Source: Escherichia phage UFV-AREG1. From it: a DNA stretch of 64,000 nt. A program made the position numbers and the translations under genes. This document shows, piece by piece, positions 15,684 to 62,753 of this stretch. Under the pieces are notes generated by a model. The model worked only from the letters and a program-made list of their open reading frames with translations, was not told where the DNA came from and ran no database searches. Positions within the stretch are counted from its first letter, which is position 1, and each line of letters begins with the position of its first letter. The stretch is from the sequence record KX009778; one strand, given 5' to 3'.

Positions 15684-15713
15684 ACTATAACACAATACGA
15701 GGGACTTGTAAAC
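15684..15713 (-). promoter_or_regulatory. Early sigma70-type promoter (GTTTACA-17-TATAGT)
   Basis: Minus-strand GTTTACA, 17-bp spacer, TATAGT upstream of ORF 15362..15652. Confidence 0.5.
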
Positions 15714-17770
15714 TACATTTTGAACTTTTTAGACATTCTGTTGATGTTAACCAAAGAAGCTAAGATTTGAGAAACTTCGCTTTCCTCTTCTTTTGATTCT
15801 TCTACAAGGAATTGATTAAATCCAGCCATTGGACGAACTTCACCAGTTTCCATCAGATGGTCGCCATCATATACTGATTCTTCTAATTGTTCAGAAGGAG
15901 GAACGATTGTACCTTCGATTAGATACTTATTATAAGCAGTTTCTTTCATCATGTACGTACTTACTTTATTAATCTTCAGTAAAATTCCACGTGGTAGAAT
16001 AACTTCAGCTTCTGATGGAAATCCTGATAAATGACCCGGAACGATAACTTTAACTCGTTCAGCTCCTTTAATTACCATACCTACATTAGTTTCAGCGTCT
16101 TCATTCGCATATGTAGAATGACTACCCATATGCATTAAATCTTCAGCATCAACTGAACCTTCTCCTTCACCAGAAAATACTGCTCCGGAATCATCTAAGG
16201 CCATATAATTTTTACCATATTCACCGAAGATATTTGGCTTGAGTGAAGTAGATACAAAGTTCTTGAAATAGAACATTTTATTTTCTATATTATGACGCAA
16301 AGTTTTAAAGGTAACTTCTTGCCCACGATAAAGAGTAGTTCCTGGAGGAAGAACTGAACCTTTAGAAAATGCAGAATCCAGCGTCTCAATATGTTTAATA
16401 GCTCGTTCCATATATTCTTCACGGGTAGAATCAGGTTTACCTAAAAGGAATGAGTTCATTTCAACATATGAATCTGCACAATAATCTTCAATTACATCAG
16501 ATTCAGCCTGAGTTAATCCTTTTGGAGTTACTTCAGTGCTTGCATATTCATATGCCTGAGCAGCAGATTCATCAATTAATTTATAAATTCCATTCATTAC
16601 AAATTGAATAATAGCTGTCTTTTCATCTGGTGTAGCTTTAGAACCTTTAACTAAATCATTGATAATTTTCTTAATAACATCAAAACTATTAGAAATATTA
16701 ATGTCAGCAAGATCGCTTAAAATTTTATCAGTTTTATAATCAAAGAATTCTTTATTCTTTAAATATTCTTGAGAACCTTGATATGTTATATCGCTCTGCA
16801 GCTTGATAGATGGATCGCGTAAACGTGCATGGGCCAATGCAATATGATTTCGGAAGCTTTCTAGTTCATAATCGCTAGATTTAAAACGAGAAGCACTTCT
16901 CATACCACCGATAGCTCCTTTGCTAAAGTTTGAACCAATCTGAATAACGCCAGAGTTCATTGATCCTTCTGCTTTATATACCGGAACTTTAGATTCAAAC
17001 TCTTGATATTTCTTAGCAGCGAAGCTATCACCCTGGAGTGAAGCGTCAACAGTAGAATATTGAGCTTGGGCTGCTAATCGACGACTGATTTTAGTTTTCT
17101 GAATAACAGCTTGATCCGTGCGCTTATCATTTTCTAAAGCAATAGAAGCAGCAACAGCAACAGCTTTAGGAACAGCATTACCTGTTTTAACGTCTACATA
17201 AACATCACCAACCTTTGATTCAACTTTTGTGAATAACTCGGTTGAAATAGGAGGTACACCTGGAATGTCTTCTAATTTGGCATTTTTACGGTAAACCATA
17301 ATATATGCGTACTTTTTATCATAATCCCAGATTTCCTTTAAAAGAACATATCGACCTGCTCCTTTAGTACGTACTAAACGGTCAGCAATAACTTGCATTT
17401 GCCGAGCAGCGCCATTTGTTTTACTTTTTAGTACGCGGAATAGGCATGCATCAATTTTATACTGTTTCATTGTTTGAAGAGCAGTATCAAAAACAGCATT
17501 AATGACGCCAATTGGATTTCCACCCAAGTTTTTAAGCTTAACTAATGATAGTTTCTCATTAACACCTATCATTACGATATGCATCATTTTGTCGCCTGGC
17601 TTAACGTTTTTATTCGTATCACCGCCAGAGGTGTATGTACAAAATCTAAATCCAGGAAGCACGCTTTCTTCACCTGCTTGAATAGCAAAAATTTGAGGTA
17701 TTTTATGCTTAGGATTTAAGTTAACAACCGGCGCCGAAGCGCCGTCAAATAATTCTGTAATAAGTTCCAT
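15713..17770 (-). CDS. Alt-family mono-ADP-ribosyltransferase paralogue (685 aa)
   Basis: N-terminus MELITELFD... homologous to adjacent alt; ART motifs YRGQ (Arg), FVSTSL (STS), EAEVILPRG (ExE). Confidence 0.85.
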   Translation of the reverse strand: MELITELFDGASAPVVNLNPKHKIPQIFAIQAGEESVLPGFRFCTYTSGGDTNKNVKPGDKMMHIVMIGVNEKLSLVKLKNLGGNPIGVINAVFDTALQTMKQYKIDACLFRVLKSKTNGAARQMQVIADRLVRTKGAGRYVLLKEIWDYDKKYAYIMVYRKNAKLEDIPGVPPISTELFTKVESKVGDVYVDVKTGNAVPKAVAVAASIALENDKRTDQAVIQKTKISRRLAAQAQYSTVDASLQGDSFAAKKYQEFESKVPVYKAEGSMNSGVIQIGSNFSKGAIGGMRSASRFKSSDYELESFRNHIALAHARLRDPSIKLQSDITYQGSQEYLKNKEFFDYKTDKILSDLADINISNSFDVIKKIINDLVKGSKATPDEKTAIIQFVMNGIYKLIDESAAQAYEYASTEVTPKGLTQAESDVIEDYCADSYVEMNSFLLGKPDSTREEYMERAIKHIETLDSAFSKGSVLPPGTTLYRGQEVTFKTLRHNIENKMFYFKNFVSTSLKPNIFGEYGKNYMALDDSGAVFSGEGEGSVDAEDLMHMGSHSTYANEDAETNVGMVIKGAERVKVIVPGHLSGFPSEAEVILPRGILLKINKVSTYMMKETAYNKYLIEGTIVPPSEQLEESVYDGDHLMETGEVRPMAGFNQFLVEESKEEESEVSQILASLVNINRMSKKFKM

Positions 17771-17773
17771 GAT

Positions 17774-19867
17774 TTATCCTTGAACGAACTTGTAAGGCAT
17801 GTTTGTAATATCTATGCAAGACGCAATAATTCCAAGAGATGATTCTACTTTCTGTTTAATATTTGATGAAACAAATGATGCAAAGTCAACTCTGTCTTCT
17901 ATTTCAATATCACCTGTCATTGCAACCAATTCACCAGTTTCCATTAAATGGTCTCCATCATAGATTACCGATTCGGTGAGCTCTTCCGTGGTCATAACTT
18001 CAGCTTGAATGAGTTTTGTATTATTAGATGTTGTTCCGTCATTATTAGAAGCATCGATTATTTTATTAACTTTGACCATCAATCCACGCGGTAGAATAAC
18101 TTCAGCTTCTGTTGCTATTCCGAGACTTCCTGGATATACAACATTAACTTTATGAGCTCCATCAATTGCCCATCCTATTTGAACTTTAACATATTCAGGA
18201 TTTTCTTTATACGCTCTTATTTCGTTTGGATTAATAGTTATTCCTTCTTCATTTTTATCAACTGTTAATTCATTGCGAGCTCCTGGTTCTAAAAGACCAA
18301 TACCAGCATGTGTGATTCCAAAACGTCCAAAAATGATAGGAGTTAAAGAAGTAGATACAAAATTTCTGAAGTAGAACACTTTATTTTTAACTAACGCTTC
18401 ATATATAGGAGCAGTCATACTTTGAGCACGATAAACTGTAATGCCTTCTGGTATACGGTCACCATTTTCAAAAGCTGAATCTAAGTTATTTATAGCAGAT
18501 TCAATTTCTTTTTCACTCATTACATCATATCGTTCTGGATTGTAACGACCTAAAAGAAGATTATTGATGTCAGTATATCCTGAACCGCAATATTCTCTAA
18601 TGCCACGCTTTTGTGATGGAGTATATTTAGAACCATCGCGGGCAATAGTAATATCAATCATTGGACCAGCACCAATTCCAGAAAAACTGTAAATCATTCG
18701 TTTGAGGAATTTAGTTTTTGCTGCGTTCCAGGAATTTTTAGTTATTTCTTCCCAGACTTCATCTGGTTGTCCTTTACGATTTTTATTATGATTAGCAAGC
18801 CATTTATCTTTATAATCTTCAAAGAATTGATTTACAGCTGCTGCGTATTTCTCTAAACATTTTATTGAAGTAGTTGGTTCATTTTTAATTGCATTAAAAA
18901 TTACTTCTTTAATTTTTTCTGAAACTTCACCGACTTGACTCATTGGAAAGAATTTATAATCATAGTGAAGTTCATCTGCCGTTCCTTCAGCAATAATTTT
19001 TGCTGCCTTTGTTTTAGAAGCTAATGAATTAATTCCAATTTTCATTTCTTCTGCTTCGGGAATTAAAGGTGCAGTAGCTGGTTTATTAAAATTAGCTGCT
19101 GTAGATTCATACTTCTGGAATAATTCACTTTCAAATCTAGAAGATTCCAATGACTGACTTTGTGCAATTGCTCTACGGGAAATTTTAACTTTAACGATTA
19201 CAGCTTGGTCAGAACGTTTATCATTTTCTTGCGCAATAGATGCTGCAATTGCTTCATTTTTAGTTACTTGAGCTCCAGTATCTTTATTGATATAAACATC
19301 ACCGACCTTCGATTCAACTTTAGTAAAGAGTTCAGTGCTAATTTCTGGAACTCCTGGAATGTCTTCTAGTGATACATTTTTGCGATGTATAAGAATATAT
19401 GCATACTTTTTATCATAATCCCAGAGTTCCTTAAGAAGGACGTATCTGCCACCTGAACGACTACGGATAAGTCTATCAGCAATAACTTGAATTTGTCGAG
19501 CTTGGCCAGCAGTTTTAGACTTAAGAATACGAAGCATACAAGCATCAATTTTATACTGACGCATTGTTTGCATTGCAACAGTAAAAACTGAATTGATATA
19601 ATTAATTGGGCTTGGCCCAAGACCTTTCAATTTAGCAATTGAACCTTTAGCAGTTAATGTAAAAGGAACAATATGCATCATTTTATCGCCCATCTTTAAA
19701 TCACGATTAGTATCACCTCCAGATGTATAGGTACATAAACGAAAGCCTGGTTGTTCAATTGCGTCATCGACATGAACTGAAAAAATTTGTGGTATCTTCT
19801 TCTTTGGATTTAAGTTTGTAATCGGAAGAGTAGTATCTTCGTCAAATAATTCTGTAATAAGTTCCAT
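17774..19867 (-). CDS. alt: Alt ADP-ribosyltransferase (packaged, injected ART; 697 aa)
   Basis: ART motifs YRAQ, FVSTSL, EAEVILPRG; adjacent to gene 30 as in T4; late promoter upstream. Confidence 0.85.
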   Translation of the reverse strand: MELITELFDEDTTLPITNLNPKKKIPQIFSVHVDDAIEQPGFRLCTYTSGGDTNRDLKMGDKMMHIVPFTLTAKGSIAKLKGLGPSPINYINSVFTVAMQTMRQYKIDACMLRILKSKTAGQARQIQVIADRLIRSRSGGRYVLLKELWDYDKKYAYILIHRKNVSLEDIPGVPEISTELFTKVESKVGDVYINKDTGAQVTKNEAIAASIAQENDKRSDQAVIVKVKISRRAIAQSQSLESSRFESELFQKYESTAANFNKPATAPLIPEAEEMKIGINSLASKTKAAKIIAEGTADELHYDYKFFPMSQVGEVSEKIKEVIFNAIKNEPTTSIKCLEKYAAAVNQFFEDYKDKWLANHNKNRKGQPDEVWEEITKNSWNAAKTKFLKRMIYSFSGIGAGPMIDITIARDGSKYTPSQKRGIREYCGSGYTDINNLLLGRYNPERYDVMSEKEIESAINNLDSAFENGDRIPEGITVYRAQSMTAPIYEALVKNKVFYFRNFVSTSLTPIIFGRFGITHAGIGLLEPGARNELTVDKNEEGITINPNEIRAYKENPEYVKVQIGWAIDGAHKVNVVYPGSLGIATEAEVILPRGLMVKVNKIIDASNNDGTTSNNTKLIQAEVMTTEELTESVIYDGDHLMETGELVAMTGDIEIEDRVDFASFVSSNIKQKVESSLGIIASCIDITNMPYKFVQG

Positions 19868-31019: not shown

Positions 31020-32607
<1,588 letters not shown>

Positions 32608-32634
32608 AATAAAATGGGCCTTGCGGCCCACTCC

Positions 32635-33864: not shown

Positions 33865-34854
33865 TCATAATTTACAGGATGAACAATCTTCAGCTTTTGG
33901 AGTTTCTATTTCATAATCATCAGTACCAGAACCATCGCGGGTATTATGATAATAGAAATTTTTTCCACCAAAATACCAAAAATACAAAAGGTCATCAATC
34001 ATTATTGACATTGGAACCTTTCCTTTTGGAAAAATCTGCGGGTCATAGTATGTATTCGCCGAAGCTGATTGACATACCCATTTCAGCATAATAGCTACCT
34101 GCGTGAGATAAGGTTTATTACCTTTCTTAGCTAATTTCCATGTATAATCATAGAGGTCTATGTTATGCTCAATATTGGGCACGACTTGATTAAAGGAGCC
34201 CTCTTTTGATTCTTTAACAGAGACTGGTCCACGTGGAGGCTCGATACCGTTTGTACTGTTAGAAACTTGGGAAGATGACTCACATGGCATAAGTGCTGAT
34301 AATGTGCTATTACGGATGCCAAAGAGCTTAAGGTCTTCCCGCAGCGACGACCAGTCACAAACGTATTTTGGAGCTGCGATTTGGTCAATCTTTTTATTGT
34401 ACCAGTCGATAGGTAATTCGCCTCGAGACCAACGAGTGTCTGAATAATATTCGCAAGGTCCTTTTTCTTTGGCGAGCTTAATGGATGCTTTAATGAGTCC
34501 ATACTGTAATCTCTCAAATAGTTCATGTGTTAAATCGTTAGCATCTTCATAAGAAGCAAAGTTACTTGCCAGCCAAGCTGCATAGTTGGTAACACCTACA
34601 CCGAGGTTACGACGCTTTTTAGCTTTTTCTGCTTCAGGAACTGGATATCCTTGGTAATCCAACAGATTATCAAGAGCACGAACTTGAACTTCTGCCAATT
34701 CATTAATTTTATCTTGGTCTTGCCAGTCAAAATTATCCAGTACGAATGCAGAGAGAGTACAAAGGCCCACTTCACCTTTGTTTTCAATAACTTGTATTGT
34801 TGTATACTCATCATCTTCGTAAAATTCATCTACAAATTCATAATCAATATTCAT
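33865..34854 (-). CDS. nrdA: Ribonucleotide reductase large subunit, C-terminal fragment (nrdA-b)
   Basis: 329 aa; NrdA C-terminus incl. CTLSAF (E. coli C462 region) and C-terminal CxxxxC tail (EDCSSCKL); own ATG overlapping HNH stop. Confidence 0.85.
   Translation of the reverse strand: MNIDYEFVDEFYEDDEYTTIQVIENKGEVGLCTLSAFVLDNFDWQDQDKINELAEVQVRALDNLLDYQGYPVPEAEKAKKRRNLGVGVTNYAAWLASNFASYEDANDLTHELFERLQYGLIKASIKLAKEKGPCEYYSDTRWSRGELPIDWYNKKIDQIAAPKYVCDWSSLREDLKLFGIRNSTLSALMPCESSSQVSNSTNGIEPPRGPVSVKESKEGSFNQVVPNIEHNIDLYDYTWKLAKKGNKPYLTQVAIMLKWVCQSASANTYYDPQIFPKGKVPMSIMIDDLLYFWYFGGKNFYYHNTRDGSGTDDYEIETPKAEDCSSCKL
34649..34761. repeat. Direct repeat A, copy 1 (113 bp, inside nrdA-b)
   Basis: Identical to 35776..35888; encodes GLCTLSAFVLDNFDWQDQDKINELAEVQVRALDNLLDYQG. 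Confidence 0.85.
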
Positions 34855-35687
34855 TTAATTCTTCTACCTTTTTTCGAGATATTCCTAGAGCTTTAGATGC
34901 TCGATGTATTGATTGATATTCTATACCGTTTATTTTTACAGCAATTAAGTTATGGGGTTTTAATCCCTTTGGATGAGGTTTACTGACGTATTCTTGATTA
35001 TCGTTTTCAGAGATGTTATCAAGCTTTCGACACTTAAAGCCTTTATGTTGAGACCTTTTGCCTTTGCATACGGCCGACATTGCCGAAGCATTGAGTGAAT
35101 GTAGTTCGCAAAATTCTCTTAGGCCTTTATGGATTTCTTCATGACCGTCCGGGAAAGTAAATACCCAAGTTGTTTGAAGTTTTTCTCTATGCTCGTCAGT
35201 TACCGGAATACCTTTGTTCCAAGCTGGTTTGCCTTTATTATTTTCAGATACAGAAATAGCCAATTTTCTTCTAAGCCACCCATGGCGTTTATTGGTGTTC
35301 TTTCGTTCAATATTATCTTCAGAATAAACACACATCATATTAGCGGCAAATACCAATTTATGATTATCTGGATATATCTTTACTAATAATTGATGAGCTA
35401 TGTAATGCTCTTCGGGTGTCAAATCTACCAGGTTTTCCTTTGTATCAGAACCACCAATACACAGAGGTATAATATGGTGTGATTCGGTATAGCAATCTAA
35501 TTTTCTGTTCTTAGCTTTAGAAATAAGGTTATTGTAAATTTTAGAATAATCCATAACTTTTCCTCTTGTTATGGATTATTTATTAACGGACTGTGTACTT
35601 TATTTGCTTTGAATTATACCGCCAGGATTAGCTTCATAAAACTTAGCTACATCCGACTTCTTAATTTTGATTAAACGGGTTTGTTGG
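34762..35687 (-). mobile_element. HNH homing-endonuclease insertion cassette splitting nrdA
   Basis: About 0.9 kb between duplicated nrdA segments, containing the HNH ORF plus a new N-terminal extension for nrdA-b. Confidence 0.7.
34844..35554 (-). CDS. HNH homing endonuclease (Mob-like) inserted in nrdA
   Basis: 236 aa; HNH motif HHIIPLCIGG...NLVDLTPEEHYIAH; C-terminal NUMOD-like GISRKKV; paralogue of ORF 6115..6807. Confidence 0.85.
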   Translation of the reverse strand: MDYSKIYNNLISKAKNRKLDCYTESHHIIPLCIGGSDTKENLVDLTPEEHYIAHQLLVKIYPDNHKLVFAANMMCVYSEDNIERKNTNKRHGWLRRKLAISVSENNKGKPAWNKGIPVTDEHREKLQTTWVFTFPDGHEEIHKGLREFCELHSLNASAMSAVCKGKRSQHKGFKCRKLDNISENDNQEYVSKPHPKGLKPHNLIAVKINGIEYQSIHRASKALGISRKKVEELNEY

Positions 35688-35774
35688 CTATTCACATCAT
35701 TTGTTGGAATAGCAATTTCACAGCACAAGTTACTCTGACGAATAGGTGCCTTTTCACGAATAAACGGAGTATAG
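35688..35774. repeat. Direct repeat B, copy 1 (87 bp)
   Basis: Identical to 35911..35997; encodes YTPFIREKAPIRQSNLCCEIAIPTNDVNS. Confidence 0.85.
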
Positions 35775-37256
35775 ACCTTGGTAATCCAACAGATTATCAA
35801 GAGCACGAACTTGAACTTCTGCCAATTCATTAATTTTATCTTGGTCTTGCCAGTCAAAATTATCCAGTACGAATGCAGAGAGAGTACACAATCCAATTTC
35901 AGCATCAGGACTATTCACATCATTTGTTGGAATAGCAATTTCACAGCACAAGTTACTCTGACGAATAGGTGCCTTTTCACGAATAAACGGAGTATAGTTA
36001 TTCGTATTATCAATGAACTGCACATAAATCCTTGCTGTTCCTGAGCGTTCAGTCATGAGCAATTCAAATAGTTCACGGGCTTTAATACGCTTTTTACGAA
36101 TATTAGGGTCTTTTTCTGCTGCTTCGTATAATTCACGGAAACGGTCTTGGTCTTTAAAATAAGAATAATAAAGCTCGCCACCCATTTCATGTGGACTGAA
36201 CAAAGTAATATAATCGTTCTTTCCGAATCGTTCCATCATCAAATCATTCAGTTGAACACCATAATCCATATGACGAATGCGGTTTTCTTCTACGCCTTTG
36301 TTATTTTTCAAAACGAGAAGATTTTCAACTTCCAAATGCCAAATAGGATAATAAGCAGTAGCAGCGCCGCCACGAATTCCACCCTGTGAACATGATTTAA
36401 CTGCAGTCTGAAAATGTTTCCAAAAAGGAATAACACCAGTATGACGTACTTCACCCATGCCAATTTTAGAACCTTCAGCACGAATCATACCAACATTAAT
36501 ACCAATTCCAGCGCGTTTAGAGATATATTCAACAATTGAAGCGGAAGCCTTATTGATAGACTTCAATGAATCTCCTGCCTCAATAACGACGCATGAACTA
36601 AACTGCCGAGTTGGAGTACGACAGCCAGCCATAATAGGAGTTGGTAATGAAATCTGTCGAGTAGATACCGCTTCATAAAAACGAATAACGTGTTTTAATC
36701 TATCAACAGGTTCATCTTGATGCAATGCCATTCCAATAGTCATAAATGCAAACTGTGGAGTTTCATAAATTTGACCAGTGGTTTTATCTTTAACGAGATA
36801 TTTTTCTTTTAATTGCATCGCCCCGGAATAAGTAAATTCCATATCCCGCTCGTGCTTAATTTTTGATTCTAAAAATGTAATTTCTTCTGCTGAATATTTT
36901 GACAGCAGTTCAGGGTCATATTTACCTTCATTTACACAGTAAGAAATATGGTCAATAAATGAACGTGGTTCATATTGTCCGTAAACATGCTTACGAAGAG
37001 CAAACATTAAACAGCGTGCAGCTACATATTGATAATCAGGTTCTTCAACCGAAATAGAATTCGCAGCGGCCTTAATGACAATAGTCTGAATATCATCAGT
37101 GGTCATTCCATCACGGAGATATGATTTAATATTTTCATATAATTCATAAGGATCTACAGATGTTCCTTCAGCTGCCCAAGATAAAACTTTAATAATTTTT
37201 TGTGGGTCAAAGCTCTGAGAAACACCACTACTTTTGATAACATTAATTAATTGCAT
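35754..37256 (-). CDS. nrdA: Ribonucleotide reductase large subunit, N-terminal fragment (nrdA-a)
   Basis: 500 aa; N-terminal ATP-cone and catalytic core incl. NLCCEIAIP (E. coli N437/C439/E441 equivalent); ends 6 codons after repeat A. Confidence 0.85.
   Translation of the reverse strand: MQLINVIKSSGVSQSFDPQKIIKVLSWAAEGTSVDPYELYENIKSYLRDGMTTDDIQTIVIKAAANSISVEEPDYQYVAARCLMFALRKHVYGQYEPRSFIDHISYCVNEGKYDPELLSKYSAEEITFLESKIKHERDMEFTYSGAMQLKEKYLVKDKTTGQIYETPQFAFMTIGMALHQDEPVDRLKHVIRFYEAVSTRQISLPTPIMAGCRTPTRQFSSCVVIEAGDSLKSINKASASIVEYISKRAGIGINVGMIRAEGSKIGMGEVRHTGVIPFWKHFQTAVKSCSQGGIRGGAATAYYPIWHLEVENLLVLKNNKGVEENRIRHMDYGVQLNDLMMERFGKNDYITLFSPHEMGGELYYSYFKDQDRFRELYEAAEKDPNIRKKRIKARELFELLMTERSGTARIYVQFIDNTNNYTPFIREKAPIRQSNLCCEIAIPTNDVNSPDAEIGLCTLSAFVLDNFDWQDQDKINELAEVQVRALDNLLDYQGLYSVYS
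35776..35888. repeat. Direct repeat A, copy 2 (113 bp, inside nrdA-a)
   Basis: Identical to 34649..34761. Confidence 0.85.
35911..35997. repeat. Direct repeat B, copy 2 (87 bp, inside nrdA-a)
   Basis: Identical to 35688..35774. Confidence 0.85.
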
Positions 37257-37573: not shown

Positions 37574-37790
37574 ATTGTTTTTCCGTTAATACAGTAATAT
37601 CATAGTAACAATCTGAAGAAGTTTTAACTGTGGAAATTTTATTATCAAAATACTCACGAGTCATTTTATGAGTATAATATTTTTTACCATAAATGATAAT
37701 AGGCTGTTCTGGTCCTGGAACTTCTAACTCGCTTGGGTTAGGAAGTGTAAAAAGAACAACGCCAGAAGTATCTTTAAATCGTAAAATCAT
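37527..37790 (-). CDS. Hypothetical protein, nrdA.2-like
   Basis: 87-aa ORF; start overlaps td stop. Confidence 0.45.
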
Positions 37791-38647
37791 ATTGCCATTT
37801 TCCCTTTAATTGCCGGATGCGATTCATAATTTTCAAGGATAAAATCTTTCGGTTTCATGTATTCAGTTAACCAGTAAAGCTGTGTTTCGGTGTCACAATT
37901 TTCAAACTCTATAGGCCAATCAATTTTAAGTTCGCACAGTTCTTTAGGCTCACGACGTAAAATTTCTTTACATTGTTCTACGTGATTCATATAGATATGA
38001 GTATTACCACCAGAAAATATCAAATCTCCTGGGATAAGATTACACATCTTAGCCATAATATGCGTCAAGGCAGCGTACGAGGCAATGTTGAATGGCAAGC
38101 CCAAGAAAACATCTACACTTCTTTGGTACCACTGTAAATCAAGATAACCATTACGCACATTAAACTGATAGAACATATGACAGGGTGGTAATGCCATTTG
38201 ATTGATTTCAGCTGGATTCCATGCTGAAACGATTTGACGTCGATCAGTTGGTAATTTTTTAATACGATCAATAGTTTCAACTAATTGATCCACACCACCG
38301 AAATCACGCCATTGTTTACCATATATAGGACCCAGTTCACCACTATGATATCCTAGGTCTTTAGCTTGGTTTTCATAATTGTCATCCCAGATAGTTTTAC
38401 CTTGAATAAGACTACCGTGAGTAAGAAGACGTAAATCATTAACATTGGTAGAACCGGAAATAAACCATAAAAGCTCAGCAATGCATGCATTCCAGGCGAG
38501 CTTCTTAGTTGTTACTGCAGGAAAACCTTTACTTAAATCCCAGCGTAATTTAGTACCGAACAAAGCAATTGTTCCTGTGCCCGTTCGGTCATCGGTTTCA
38601 TAGCCATTTTCAAAAATGTCTTTAATTAAATCTTGGTATTGTTTCAT
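37787..38647 (-). CDS. td: Thymidylate synthase, intron-less
   Basis: 286-aa continuous ORF; active-site [10 protein letters not shown]; full T4 TS length without the intron. Confidence 0.95.
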
Positions 38648-40831: not shown

Positions 40832-40874
40832 ATTATTTTCCTCTTTAATTATCAGCAGTATTGCCGATAGTTGT

Positions 40875-40904
40875 ATAGTACCACATTATGCTTTGGTTGT
40901 AAAC
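40875..40904 (-). promoter_or_regulatory. Conserved early promoter module (GTTTACA-17-TACTAT)
   Basis: One of four near-identical ~70-bp elements (also near 58130, 61426, 62150). Confidence 0.5.
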
Positions 40905-40921
40905 AGTTTTGTGAAAAATTT

Positions 40922-40953
40922 TTAAAATAAAAAAGGGGACCCTAGAGGTCCCC
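40922..40953 (-). terminator. Rho-independent terminator downstream of gene 32
   Basis: Hairpin ggggacc-ctaga-ggtcccc followed by T-run on minus strand. Confidence 0.65.
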
Positions 40954-40975
40954 AATTAATTAGTAATATAATCTA

Positions 40976-58088: not shown

Positions 58089-58129
58089 TTTCTAATCTCC
58101 GTAATTCTGTATCAGTAGTTGATAGTTGT

Positions 58130-58159
58130 ATAGTACCACAGTATGCTTTGGTTGTAAAC
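58130..58159 (-). promoter_or_regulatory. Conserved early promoter module upstream of motA
   Basis: GTTTACA-17-TACTAT on minus strand; near-identical to elements at 40875, 61426, 62150. Confidence 0.55.
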
Positions 58160-58180
58160 CGTTTTGTGAAAAAATTTTTG

Positions 58181-58208
58181 AAATAAAAAAGGGGAGCCGA
58201 AGCTCCCC
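58181..58208 (-). terminator. Rho-independent terminator upstream of motA promoter
   Basis: Hairpin ggggagc-cgaa-gctcccc followed by T-run on minus strand. Confidence 0.6.
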
Positions 58209-58210
58209 AA

Positions 58211-62115: not shown

Positions 62116-62149
62116 TTTATTCTCCAAATCCGTATCAGTTGATAGTTGT

Positions 62150-62179
62150 ATAGTACCACAGTCCTTGTGGTATGTAAAC
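62150..62179 (-). promoter_or_regulatory. Conserved early promoter module
   Basis: GTTTACA-17-TACTAT. Confidence 0.45.
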
Positions 62180-62195
62180 CGTTTTGTGAAAATTT

Positions 62196-62753
62196 TTAAA
62201 TGGAAAGATACCATCCGTTGTAGTTGCTTTTTCTTACAACTTTACGAAGGTCTTCTTTATCACCGATGAACTTCGGAGTGTACTGGATGACACCTGGATG
62301 AATTTCTTTAGTGTTGAATATAATTATACAGTCAGCGACCTGATGATTCAGAATGGGCCCTAGATTTATTCCAGAACCGTATGGATACTCTCCGCTGCAT
62401 CCGGTTGTTACCGAAATCCAGCGTGAGTCAGTTTGGTGTGTTTTGACTTCTACACGAAGCCCGCAATATCTTGGATGCGCCAATACATCCCATGCGTATG
62501 TATACGGGTCATTAACATCCTCTTGGCCTTTGTTAACATACCCGCTCAGCCAATCTGCTACAAAAAACTCTGCATACACAGCGATACGGCATCTTTCGAT
62601 GACTTCTGCTTTATCCTGATTAGGATTTTGTTTTAAAGAGTATCTTGCTGTATCAGCAATTTTGACCTTCATTTCACTAGTCAAGTCATTGTTCGATAGG
62701 GTAAATGTCGGAATCTGAAATAGTCTCTGTAAACCCGGATTCGTTTTCTGCAT
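62196..62753 (-). CDS. denB: Endonuclease IV
   Basis: 185 aa; synteny between ndd cluster and rIIB. Confidence 0.8.
   Translation of the reverse strand: MQKTNPGLQRLFQIPTFTLSNNDLTSEMKVKIADTARYSLKQNPNQDKAEVIERCRIAVYAEFFVADWLSGYVNKGQEDVNDPYTYAWDVLAHPRYCGLRVEVKTHQTDSRWISVTTGCSGEYPYGSGINLGPILNHQVADCIIIFNTKEIHPGVIQYTPKFIGDKEDLRKVVRKSNYNGWYLSI

Follow-up and report, generated by a model that had tools for sequence, protein, structure and literature searches.

A head-to-tail duplication in the nrdA sequence of Escherichia phage UFV-AREG1, possibly an assembly join, brings together the empty and occupied states of a homing site

Results

Organization of the nrdA locus

The window, by which we mean the whole stretch of 64,000 nt from Escherichia phage UFV-AREG1 (sequence record KX009778) that was analyzed, carries on its minus strand two nrdA fragments with a free-standing HNH-family ORF between them. 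Read in the nrdA direction, the features of the locus are the following:

35754..37256, minus strand: 'NrdA-a prime' ORF, 500 aa
35911..35997, minus strand: repeat B2, 87 nt, coding for YTPFIREKAPIRQSNLCCEIAIPTNDVNS (active-site loop), continuous with upstream nrdA
35889..35910, minus strand: native linker, 22 nt, PDAEIGL codons; the unoccupied homing site
35776..35888, minus strand: repeat A2, 113 nt, coding for CTLSAF...LDYQG, including the Cys equivalent to E. coli C462
35775..35775, no strand: junction base, 'A' on the plus strand and 'T' in the nrdA direction
35688..35774, minus strand: repeat B1, the copy running into the cassette
34762..35687, minus strand: mobile cassette, 926 nt, made of the X tail with its stop, an intergenic part holding a Shine-Dalgarno sequence, then the HNH gene and the E leader
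35600..35687, minus strand: basic-tail coding sequence (X), QQTRLIKIKKSDVAKFYEANPGGIIQSK, 28 codons plus stop, pI 10.0
34844..35554, minus strand: HNH homing endonuclease, free-standing, Mob family, 236 aa, intact
34762..34854, minus strand: nrdA-b 5' leader (E), acidic tail MNIDYEFVDEFYEDDEYTTIQVIENKGEV followed by GL, pI 4.05
34649..34761, minus strand: repeat A1, the copy running on into the remainder of nrdA-b
33865..34854, minus strand: nrdA-b, 329 aa, C-terminal part of the reductase barrel

The initial annotation had described two perfectly identical repeat pairs, and self-comparison of the window returned both of them at 100% identity: A (34649-34761 and 35776-35888), of 113 nt, and B (35688-35774 and 35911-35997), of 87 nt, whose matches end exactly, with no base of extension on their outer sides. 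They are the sole exact repeats of at least 40 nt in the whole 64-kb window, where the remaining direct repeats are diverged paralogues of 66-91% identity, the lone exception being a 29-nt exact match within one such pair; since nothing comparable occurs in 64 kb, a chance origin of A and B is excluded. The order proposed for the nrdA direction (B2, 22-nt linker, A2, B1, cassette, A1) was borne out as well, with small corrections to the gaps in the cassette, which measure 133 nt instead of 134 from B1 to the HNH start codon and 82 nt instead of 89 from the HNH stop to A1, and with the addition of a single base between A2 and B1 (35775) that was absent from that parse. One nrdA segment, 222 nt long, stands twice in head-to-tail arrangement, each time in a different allelic state, as an empty-site unit formed by B2, the 22-nt native linker and A2, and an occupied-site unit formed by B1, the 926-nt cassette with its Mob-type HNH gene, and A1. 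The linker is identical to that found in most HNH-free relatives, and past A1 the downstream nrdA continues as ...ATATCCAGTT. Because of the junction base, the extra unit amounts to 223 nt and shifts the reading frame.

As a consequence of the 223-nt unit, the basic tail lies out of frame with NrdA-a prime. This ORF covers NrdA up to and including the active-site finger loop, followed by the native linker and A2, and closes with six codons derived from the junction (LYSVYS) and a stop, without the basic tail that ends the canonical NrdA-a of 477 aa. In the window, this tail can be reached solely through a spurious 101-aa ORF (35600-35905), which, as had been suggested, has B1 in the frame of NrdA, followed by 28 codons of the cassette; the proposal that these codons are the C terminus of a donor split nrdA-a is also sustained, as they match exactly the tail of the canonical protein. 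We rejected this ORF as a real gene, because it starts out of frame inside A2, and also a programmed frameshift from A2 to B1, whose product would duplicate the active-site loop. The split separates the two cysteines that correspond to C439 and C462 of E. coli, NrdA-a carrying SNLCCEI and NrdA-b carrying GLCTLSAF with Cys-32. An element-derived basic C-tail fused to NrdA-a is not found in the window, where the acidic leader of nrdA-b is present; relatives with the canonical allele, REP2 among them, have both tail fusions.

The HNH cassette

The limits of the cassette match those set independently by a comparison between Tequatrovirus and Mosigvirus. Its HNH ORF, flanked by Ribonuc_red_lgC halves, gave a Pfam I-HmuI_NUMOD-like match above threshold and a weak HNH match, matched the homing endonuclease family phrog_655 (E=3e-60), and in its N-terminal catalytic half shares 46% identity with T4 MobE over 127 aligned residues. 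At least 58 collection blocks contain this protein at 100% identity, and the cassette as a whole keeps 99.2-99.8% identity between two genera with flanks that have diverged by ~22%, for which reason it is evidently mobile. The end of the HNH gene is overlapped by 11 nt by the nrdA-b leader, which places 29 aa ahead of GLCTLSAF. The initial annotation had seen in this leader a diverged version of the native linker region, a likeness that we find in its last ~12 residues (TTIQVIENKGEV), which align weakly with the native loop PTNDVNSPDAEI; as judged from the sequence, the leader fits a diverged loop copy that the element may carry, the similarity being weak. The exact NrdA-b protein also occurs in the HNH-positive phage REP3 (OQ174502) and in two metagenome contigs, and the REP2 locus has, segment by segment, as many differences from the window as that of REP3.

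Comparison of nine HNH-positive with 16 HNH-negative sequences gave no cassette-linked variants in the flanking nrdA, and a distal cleavage site of the kind known for T4 MobE, flagged by 'immunity' variants, was rejected on this result. Self-immunity would therefore be most simply achieved by replacement of the linker, and in that case the HNH enzyme encoded in cis, given the activity and target predicted for it, would be expected to cut the empty copy.

The junction and the alleles of related phages

At 35774-35776, the last bases of A meet the first of B, a succession found in neither parent, and the plus strand reads ...GGAGTATAG-A-CCTTGGTAATCC... across the join. Base 35775 matches neither parental context, as both parents carry one and the same other base there, and the join has no microhomology, with no bases shared. 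The consensus is clean around the junction and over the rest of the window, and no further anomaly of this kind was found elsewhere in the 64 kb. The 22-mer spanning the junction was not found in viral, metagenome or genome contig collections; a query spanning the junction aligned with the phage collection, among the matches listed, solely as two permuted pieces; no exact record was found for the two proteins that the junction creates (500 aa and 101 aa); and no second genome with the same 223-bp extra copy and junction was found in the collections searched.

Removing one unit or the other leaves loci of 3169 nt and 2265 nt that are exactly collinear with known alleles, one deletion giving the split nrdA-a/HNH/nrdA-b allele and the other an intact nrdA. 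The donor allele that had been predicted, with the cassette between B and A and no extra copy, does exist, since 27 phage records span the whole query; tblastn with the nrdA-b leader found it in full in 33 phage records (coverage of at least 80% of the query), and the split allele, known from at least 33 phage records, is also present in many metagenome contigs. The extra 223 bp is missing from all 27 full-length HNH-positive phage records and from every contig among the matches listed for the identical HNH protein.

The two copies have a common 222-nt haplotype that was matched exactly in none of 514 phage records, T4 differing at 3 positions and the best matches, T2 included, at 1, and repeat A varies greatly, with 13 haplotypes among 13 genomes. 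This shared haplotype, exact in no other phage, indicates that the two alleles come from one phage lineage. As far as the very borders of the cassette, B1 and A1 keep the lineage-specific haplotype seen in B2 and A2, so that the co-conversion tract from a divergent donor, put forward in the initial annotation, is absent; the polymorphism beside the cassette, considered as a trace of such a tract, also occurs in HNH-free phages and was discarded. The exact Td protein occurs in HNH-free genomes only, and the exact NrdA-b in HNH-positive genomes only. A switch of parents at the junction, from HNH-free on the left to HNH-positive on the right, was rejected, since the table of mismatches per segment reveals ordinary mosaicism with no break there.

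Two readings can be weighed on these comparisons. That the extra B-linker-A unit is foreign, a fragment or reads of an already known phage (laboratory T4 or T2, for instance) having been inserted or co-assembled, is suggested by a 171-nt stretch over the junction whose halves are both 100% identical to T4 and T2. Even so, we consider it barely credible: the 222-nt unit is exact in 0 of the 514 records, which led us to reject contamination by T4, T2 or any other sequenced phage, and the window's own occupied copy matches it perfectly in both arms, so that an unsampled sibling phage alone would fit, a case already covered by the in-silico join discussed below. It is also very improbable that the duplication came first, with an HNH-free ancestor gaining a spontaneous 223-nt tandem duplication and the cassette later homing into the downstream copy alone. 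Although this would explain identical arms without a mixed population, it takes two rare steps, the persistence of a duplication that shifts the frame of nrdA and the conversion of just one of two identical adjacent targets, when cutting both would delete the intervening unit. Moreover, no HNH-free genome with the duplication was found; among the matches listed for the 222-nt unit, of which 487 records cover at least 80%, a single copy is carried.

Discussion

Taken by itself, the sequence would fit either an illegitimate event in vivo or a join made in silico, and several features favor the latter. Our preferred reading, to which we give a probability of about 0.5, is that heteroallelic contig ends were concatenated during assembly, and we rate it slightly above a transient product of illegitimate recombination. 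The sequenced material would have consisted mostly of HNH-positive genomes with some isogenic or nearly isogenic HNH-free ones, and the contig of a circularly permuted genome could have begun with cassette-anchored reads extending 87 nt into B and ended with reads anchored in the native linker and extending 113 nt into A. Such ends, not being identical, would have gone unrecognized as an overlap and been concatenated when the genome was rotated, base 35775 being a contig-terminal error. The true genome would then have the ordinary split allele of its relatives, and the 500-aa and 101-aa ORFs would be artefacts.

In favor of an in-silico join, the structure is unique to one record and removal of a unit exactly restores a known allele, and both copies share a haplotype despite the high polymorphism of A; perfect identity of A and B is automatic if one population was read twice. 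At 87 and 113 nt, the arms would fall below the length of a typical short read, as expected if allele-specific reads set the contig ends, and the remainder of the window is a clean consensus. In addition, the extra 'A', which matches neither parent, stands at the 3' end of the plus-strand stretch that ends in B1, and the common TruSeq adapter starts with 'A', although this argument is worth at most a factor of ~3. A real structure should also collapse quickly, as the empty copy is probably a target of the HNH enzyme, ectopic endonuclease sites in T4 genomes are efficiently cut and T4 has a single-strand annealing pathway (PMC3016281). On the other hand, de Bruijn assemblers would yield equal overlaps and not 87 and 113 nt, so that an overlap-type or greedy assembler or manual finishing is needed; no single k-mer size fits the unequal arms, which led us to reject an origin of the 223 nt in a de Bruijn bubble contig. 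The join in silico also requires a mixed sample of HNH-positive and HNH-negative genomes with identical flanks, which after plaque purification calls for carry-over or for cross-sample contamination from a sibling phage, and no similar anomaly occurs elsewhere in the window.

The main alternative, which we hold to be possible but tentative, is that the duplication is real and arose in vivo by a homology-free join between empty and newly occupied sister genomes, coexisting in a cell in which the HNH cassette was entering this phage lineage. One end lying 113 nt past the linker would have been joined to an end reaching 87 nt before the cassette, either by a template switch or by double-strand-break repair of the illegitimate kind, leaving one mismatched base where they meet. 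What results would be a heteroallelic tandem duplication, in which recombination between the B copies gives the split allele and between the A copies the intact nrdA. The junction is present in the given sequence, with a clean consensus around it, as a novel head-to-tail junction of non-adjacent sequences; it sits exactly where breaks and repair are expected, beside an evidently mobile cassette, and the flanks are isogenic, as expected from an intracellular event between sister genomes. A founder virion with the duplication would itself yield a mixed population. [quoted passage not shown]

Against an origin in vivo, the structure is a singleton among all HNH-positive genomes, no second genome having the junction, and the join lacks microhomology, unlike the reported T4 events, which used it (PMC2988022). 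The empty site is probably still an HNH target, and perfect repeats of 87 and 113 nt would lead to loss within a few growth cycles, while NrdA-a is parted from its basic tail, which would be counter-selected, as tails are essential for activity in phage Aeh1 (PMC3045599). Both arms being under ~150 nt and the filler 'A' would moreover have to be coincidences.

The two explanations differ in what they imply. An artefactual join would mean that the record gives a wrong picture of nrdA, that the LYSVYS-tailed 500-aa ORF and the 101-aa ORF are spurious, that the locus is in truth the ordinary split allele, and that the stock was heterogeneous for the homing endonuclease gene, the element having been caught invading a lineage. 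Should the genome truly hold an intact empty homing site in cis, directly upstream of the occupied one, which we regard with some doubt, it would be the captured by-product of a very recent homing event resolved by homology-free end joining, a 'before and after' pair on one molecule and a rare natural case of such repair at the site of a free-standing endonuclease in a T-even phage. The Mob-type enzyme would then tolerate or fail to cut its own cis target, for instance as a weak nickase, which would make the locus a testable case of an endonuclease living alongside its own target, and recombination between the A copies would provide a one-step precise loss of the homing endonuclease gene, regenerating intact nrdA. 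Under either explanation, the isogenic empty and occupied pair defines the mobile unit to the base, with 926 nt replacing the 22-nt linker, and this unit arrived without co-conversion of flanking markers. It brings both tail-coding segments; in the Aeh1 work such tails rescue the split reductase.

Comparison with known systems

Untrimmed terminal overlap in rotated contigs of circularly permuted phages is a common assembly artefact and, like the structure described here, produces a perfect short tandem duplication in an otherwise clean genome and in one record. Its arms do not exceed the read or k-mer, against 87 and 113 nt here; it duplicates one identical stretch, whereas the present copies differ by the 926-nt cassette, for which a heterogeneous sample is needed.

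In Aeromonas phage Aeh1, a ribonucleotide reductase of the 'genes-in-pieces' kind, with the order nrdA-a / mobE / nrdA-b, was reportedly described by Friedrich et al. in 2007. As in the window, a free-standing HNH gene splits nrdA between the equivalents of C439 and C462, and the endonuclease gene overlaps nrdA-b. In Aeh1, Cys-431 lies on NrdA-a and Cys-31 on NrdA-b, and the tails are essential for activity of the split reductase (Crona et al. 2011, PMC3045599). The NrdA-b cysteine is at position 32 here versus 31 in Aeh1, the basic C-tail of NrdA-a has a pI of 10.0 versus 10.4, and the acidic N-tail of NrdA-b a pI of 4.05 versus 3.8. The hosts differ, with coliphages of Tequatrovirus and Mosigvirus on one side and an Aeromonas phage on the other, and tblastn with the nrdA-b leader gave no Aeh1-like match among those listed, and the ten commonest organisms included no Aeromonas. 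Aeh1 lacks an empty-site copy, and in this window the basic tail is cut off from NrdA-a.

T4 MobE is likewise a free-standing HNH endonuclease of the Mob family in the nrd region (Wilson and Edgell 2009, PMC2790892). Its gene lies between nrdA and nrdB and the enzyme nicks ~120 nt inside nrdB, T4 itself being thought to be protected by local polymorphisms (PMC2790892), whereas the gene described here is inside nrdA, differs in its C-terminal DNA-binding half and has flanks without protective polymorphisms. Finally, illegitimate repair in T4 intron homing (Parker, Belisle and Belfort 1999, summarized in PMC2988022) was seen to use microhomology when homology was missing on one side, and it can duplicate a flank and leaves, like the present locus, an endonuclease-associated novel junction beside a mobile element. 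Compared with those events, both flanks are here fully homologous, and the join has one mismatched base in place of microhomology.

Organization of the nrdA locus

The window derives from a T4-like phage (Tequatrovirus), its nearest records being approximately 96% identical over 24 kb. The features of its split nrdA are listed below, where A1 and A2, and B1 and B2, are the two copies of each repeat.

nrdA: 37256 to 33865, minus strand
Repeat A: 34649-34761 and 35776-35888, 113 nt, perfect copies
Repeat B: 35688-35774 and 35911-35997, 87 nt, perfect copies
Locus in the nrdA direction, first part: upstream nrdA, B2, 22-nt linker (PDAEIGL codons), A2, one base, B1
Second part, after B1: basic tail (28 codons and stop), then a 236-aa HNH gene preceded by a Shine-Dalgarno of its own
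Third part, after the HNH gene: acidic 29-aa leader, with an 11-nt overlap with the HNH stop, then A1 and the remaining nrdA

The exact repeats that the initial annotation had placed around the HNH gene were confirmed (113 and 87 nt, both perfect), as was the order B2-linker-A2-B1-HNH-A1, but the spacers given as 134 and 89 nt measure 133 and 82 nt. Identity stops at once at the outer edges of both repeats, not one base further, and A2 and B1 are parted by a single base, 35775. A and B are the sole exact repeats of at least 40 nt within the 64-kb window; every other direct repeat belongs to diverged paralogues or to regulatory cassettes (66-91% identity), the sole exception being a 29-nt exact match within one diverged paralogue pair.

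In silico removal of 35775-35997 (223 nt) gives exact collinearity with the split allele of REP2, an HNH-positive relative (3169 nt, 64 substitutions), while removal of 34649-35775 (1127 nt) leaves an intact nrdA that is collinear with the gene of phage slur03 (2265 nt, 56 substitutions). Since either deletion yields a known allele, the locus is one 222-nt segment duplicated in tandem, with one copy empty (B2, linker, A2) and the other occupied by the cassette (B1, cassette, A1). Under either origin discussed below, the pair of copies delimits the mobile unit exactly, 22 nt being exchanged for 926 nt; this unit includes both tail-coding segments and came without co-conversion. The co-conversion tract from a divergent donor proposed earlier is not present, and no parent switch was found at the junction.

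Origin of the tandem copy

Among the collections searched, neither the additional empty-site unit nor the junction was found outside this window. The junction 22-mer had no match in viral, metagenome and genome contig collections, the top matches listed for a junction-spanning query of the phage collection were only two permuted pieces of intact nrdA, and neither of the two proteins created by the junction is on record. The duplication, seen once, is of doubtful authenticity.

Repeat A is highly polymorphic (13 haplotypes in 13 HNH-positive genomes) and B is almost as variable, and the 222-nt haplotype of the window, common variants in a unique combination, is present in both copies. None of 514 phage records matches this unit exactly, which rules out every sequenced phage, T4 and T2 included, as the source of the empty copy; the empty and occupied copies share one lineage. 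Because the linker is not regenerable from the occupied allele, an isogenic HNH-free sibling must have coexisted with the HNH-positive genome, in one cell or one sample.

We give a probability of about 50% to the junction having been made in silico, whereby contig ends carrying different alleles, empty and occupied, would have been concatenated into a tandem. Consistent with this origin, both arms are below typical short-read length, the extra base, at the 3' terminus of the plus-strand stretch, is an 'A', and the join falls exactly on the heteroallelic site of a genome whose circular permutation calls for manual linearisation. On the other hand, the sample would have to be mixed, and the contig produced either by an overlap-type assembler or with finishing by hand. 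An illegitimate join in vivo is rated somewhat lower; illegitimate repair at homing sites is documented in vivo (summarised in PMC2988022), and Mob enzymes may act as nickases at remote positions (PMC2790892). No cassette-linked variants were found in the flanking nrdA, so HNH-positive genomes are most simply protected by linker replacement, and the empty copy is therefore a probable substrate of the HNH encoded about 134 nt downstream. T4 genomes are cut efficiently at introduced endonuclease sites and have a single-strand annealing pathway (PMC3016281); a linker break between the perfect 87-nt repeats should collapse the locus to the ordinary split allele. In addition, the junction shifts the frame and thereby leaves NrdA-a without its basic tail, a loss expected, by analogy with Aeromonas phage Aeh1, to impair enzyme function. 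If real, the structure would consequently be unstable and counter-selected, yet the duplication is the consensus within an otherwise clean assembly. Other routes to the duplication are, even taken together, improbable.

The earlier interpretation holds for the structure and for the donor allele, whereas the mechanism it proposed is unproven and may not be biological at all. The predicted donor allele without the extra copy does exist, in 27 phage records that span the whole query and lack just the 223 nt.

Surroundings of nrdA and other repeats

The td gene (37787-38647) is intron-less and lies 0-2 nt from that of several HNH-free phages, against 77-162 nt differences (about 9-19%) from the td of other nrdA-HNH-positive phages, which marks a sharp mosaic boundary less than 1.5 kb from nrdA. 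The 5' third of nrdA (36500-37256) has 21-36 substitutions per 757 nt relative to each of approximately 25 relatives, exceeding neighbouring segments, and no close donor was found among them. Beside nrdB, a GIY-YIG ORF (32197-32631; longest form 144 aa from a GTG start, 136 aa in relatives) is the positional counterpart of denA (endonuclease II), not of a seg homing endonuclease. The nrdA/nrdB spacer is empty in the window; in six related loci (L006, L008, L051, L052, L054 and L055) it holds differing inserts, namely NUMOD-type endonuclease genes (213 or 243 aa) or a D12-class methyltransferase gene (263 aa), and in some relatives an HNH_3 gene additionally splits nrdB.

An intergenic module of approximately 90 nt occurs three times (40866-40955, 58121-58210 and 62141-62230; 66-83% identical), two copies ending in a G+C-rich hairpin (GGGGACCCTAGAGGTCCCC), and resembles mobile promoter/terminator cassettes known from T4-type phages. 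Two adjacent paralogous ORFs, 15713-17770 (685 aa) and 17774-19867 (697 aa), share several stretches 70-80% identical, offset throughout by about 2095 nt; they look like an old tandem gene duplication and are probably alt-like, since they adjoin the alt.1/ligase region.

The HNH cassette and its known counterparts

The underlying element is ordinary, widespread and of a known kind. Judged by its matches, the HNH protein is a Mob-family HNH endonuclease: Pfam gives I-HmuI NUMOD-like and weak HNH matches, it matches phrog_655, and its catalytic half is 46% identical to T4 MobE. At least 58 blocks of the assembly collection, from Tequatrovirus and Mosigvirus backgrounds alike, carry it with 100% identity and with constant neighbours (NrdA-a of 477 or 474 aa, NrdA-b of 329 aa), and the full nrdA-b leader is present in 33 records. 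Between genomes with about 22% flank divergence the cassette differs, with one genome excepted, by 2-8 bases in 926, and the conserved block ends at the cassette-facing edges of B and A, give or take a 14-nt invariant stretch at one end and about 3 nt at the other. In the exception, locus L015 (ENA ERZ27280504 contig k141_237434), a patch of about 130 nt in the HNH gene holds most of the 49 substitutions of a cassette that is invariant elsewhere, which suggests recombination involving a diverged HNH allele. At this same site, Yersinia phage fPS-2 has an HNH of 89% identity.

The arrangement parallels nrdA-a/mobE/nrdA-b of Aeh1. The split falls between the same two active-site cysteines (NrdA-b Cys-32 in the window, Cys-31 in Aeh1; PMC3045599), and in both the endonuclease gene overlaps nrdA-b. 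Weak alignment to the native loop is seen for the final dozen residues of the acidic leader, lending modest support to the proposal that the element carries a diverged loop copy. The tails are likewise similar in charge, with a pI of 10.0 for the NrdA-a basic tail and 4.05 for the NrdA-b acidic tail, compared with 10.4 and 3.8 in Aeh1, where enzyme activity requires the tails (PMC3045599).
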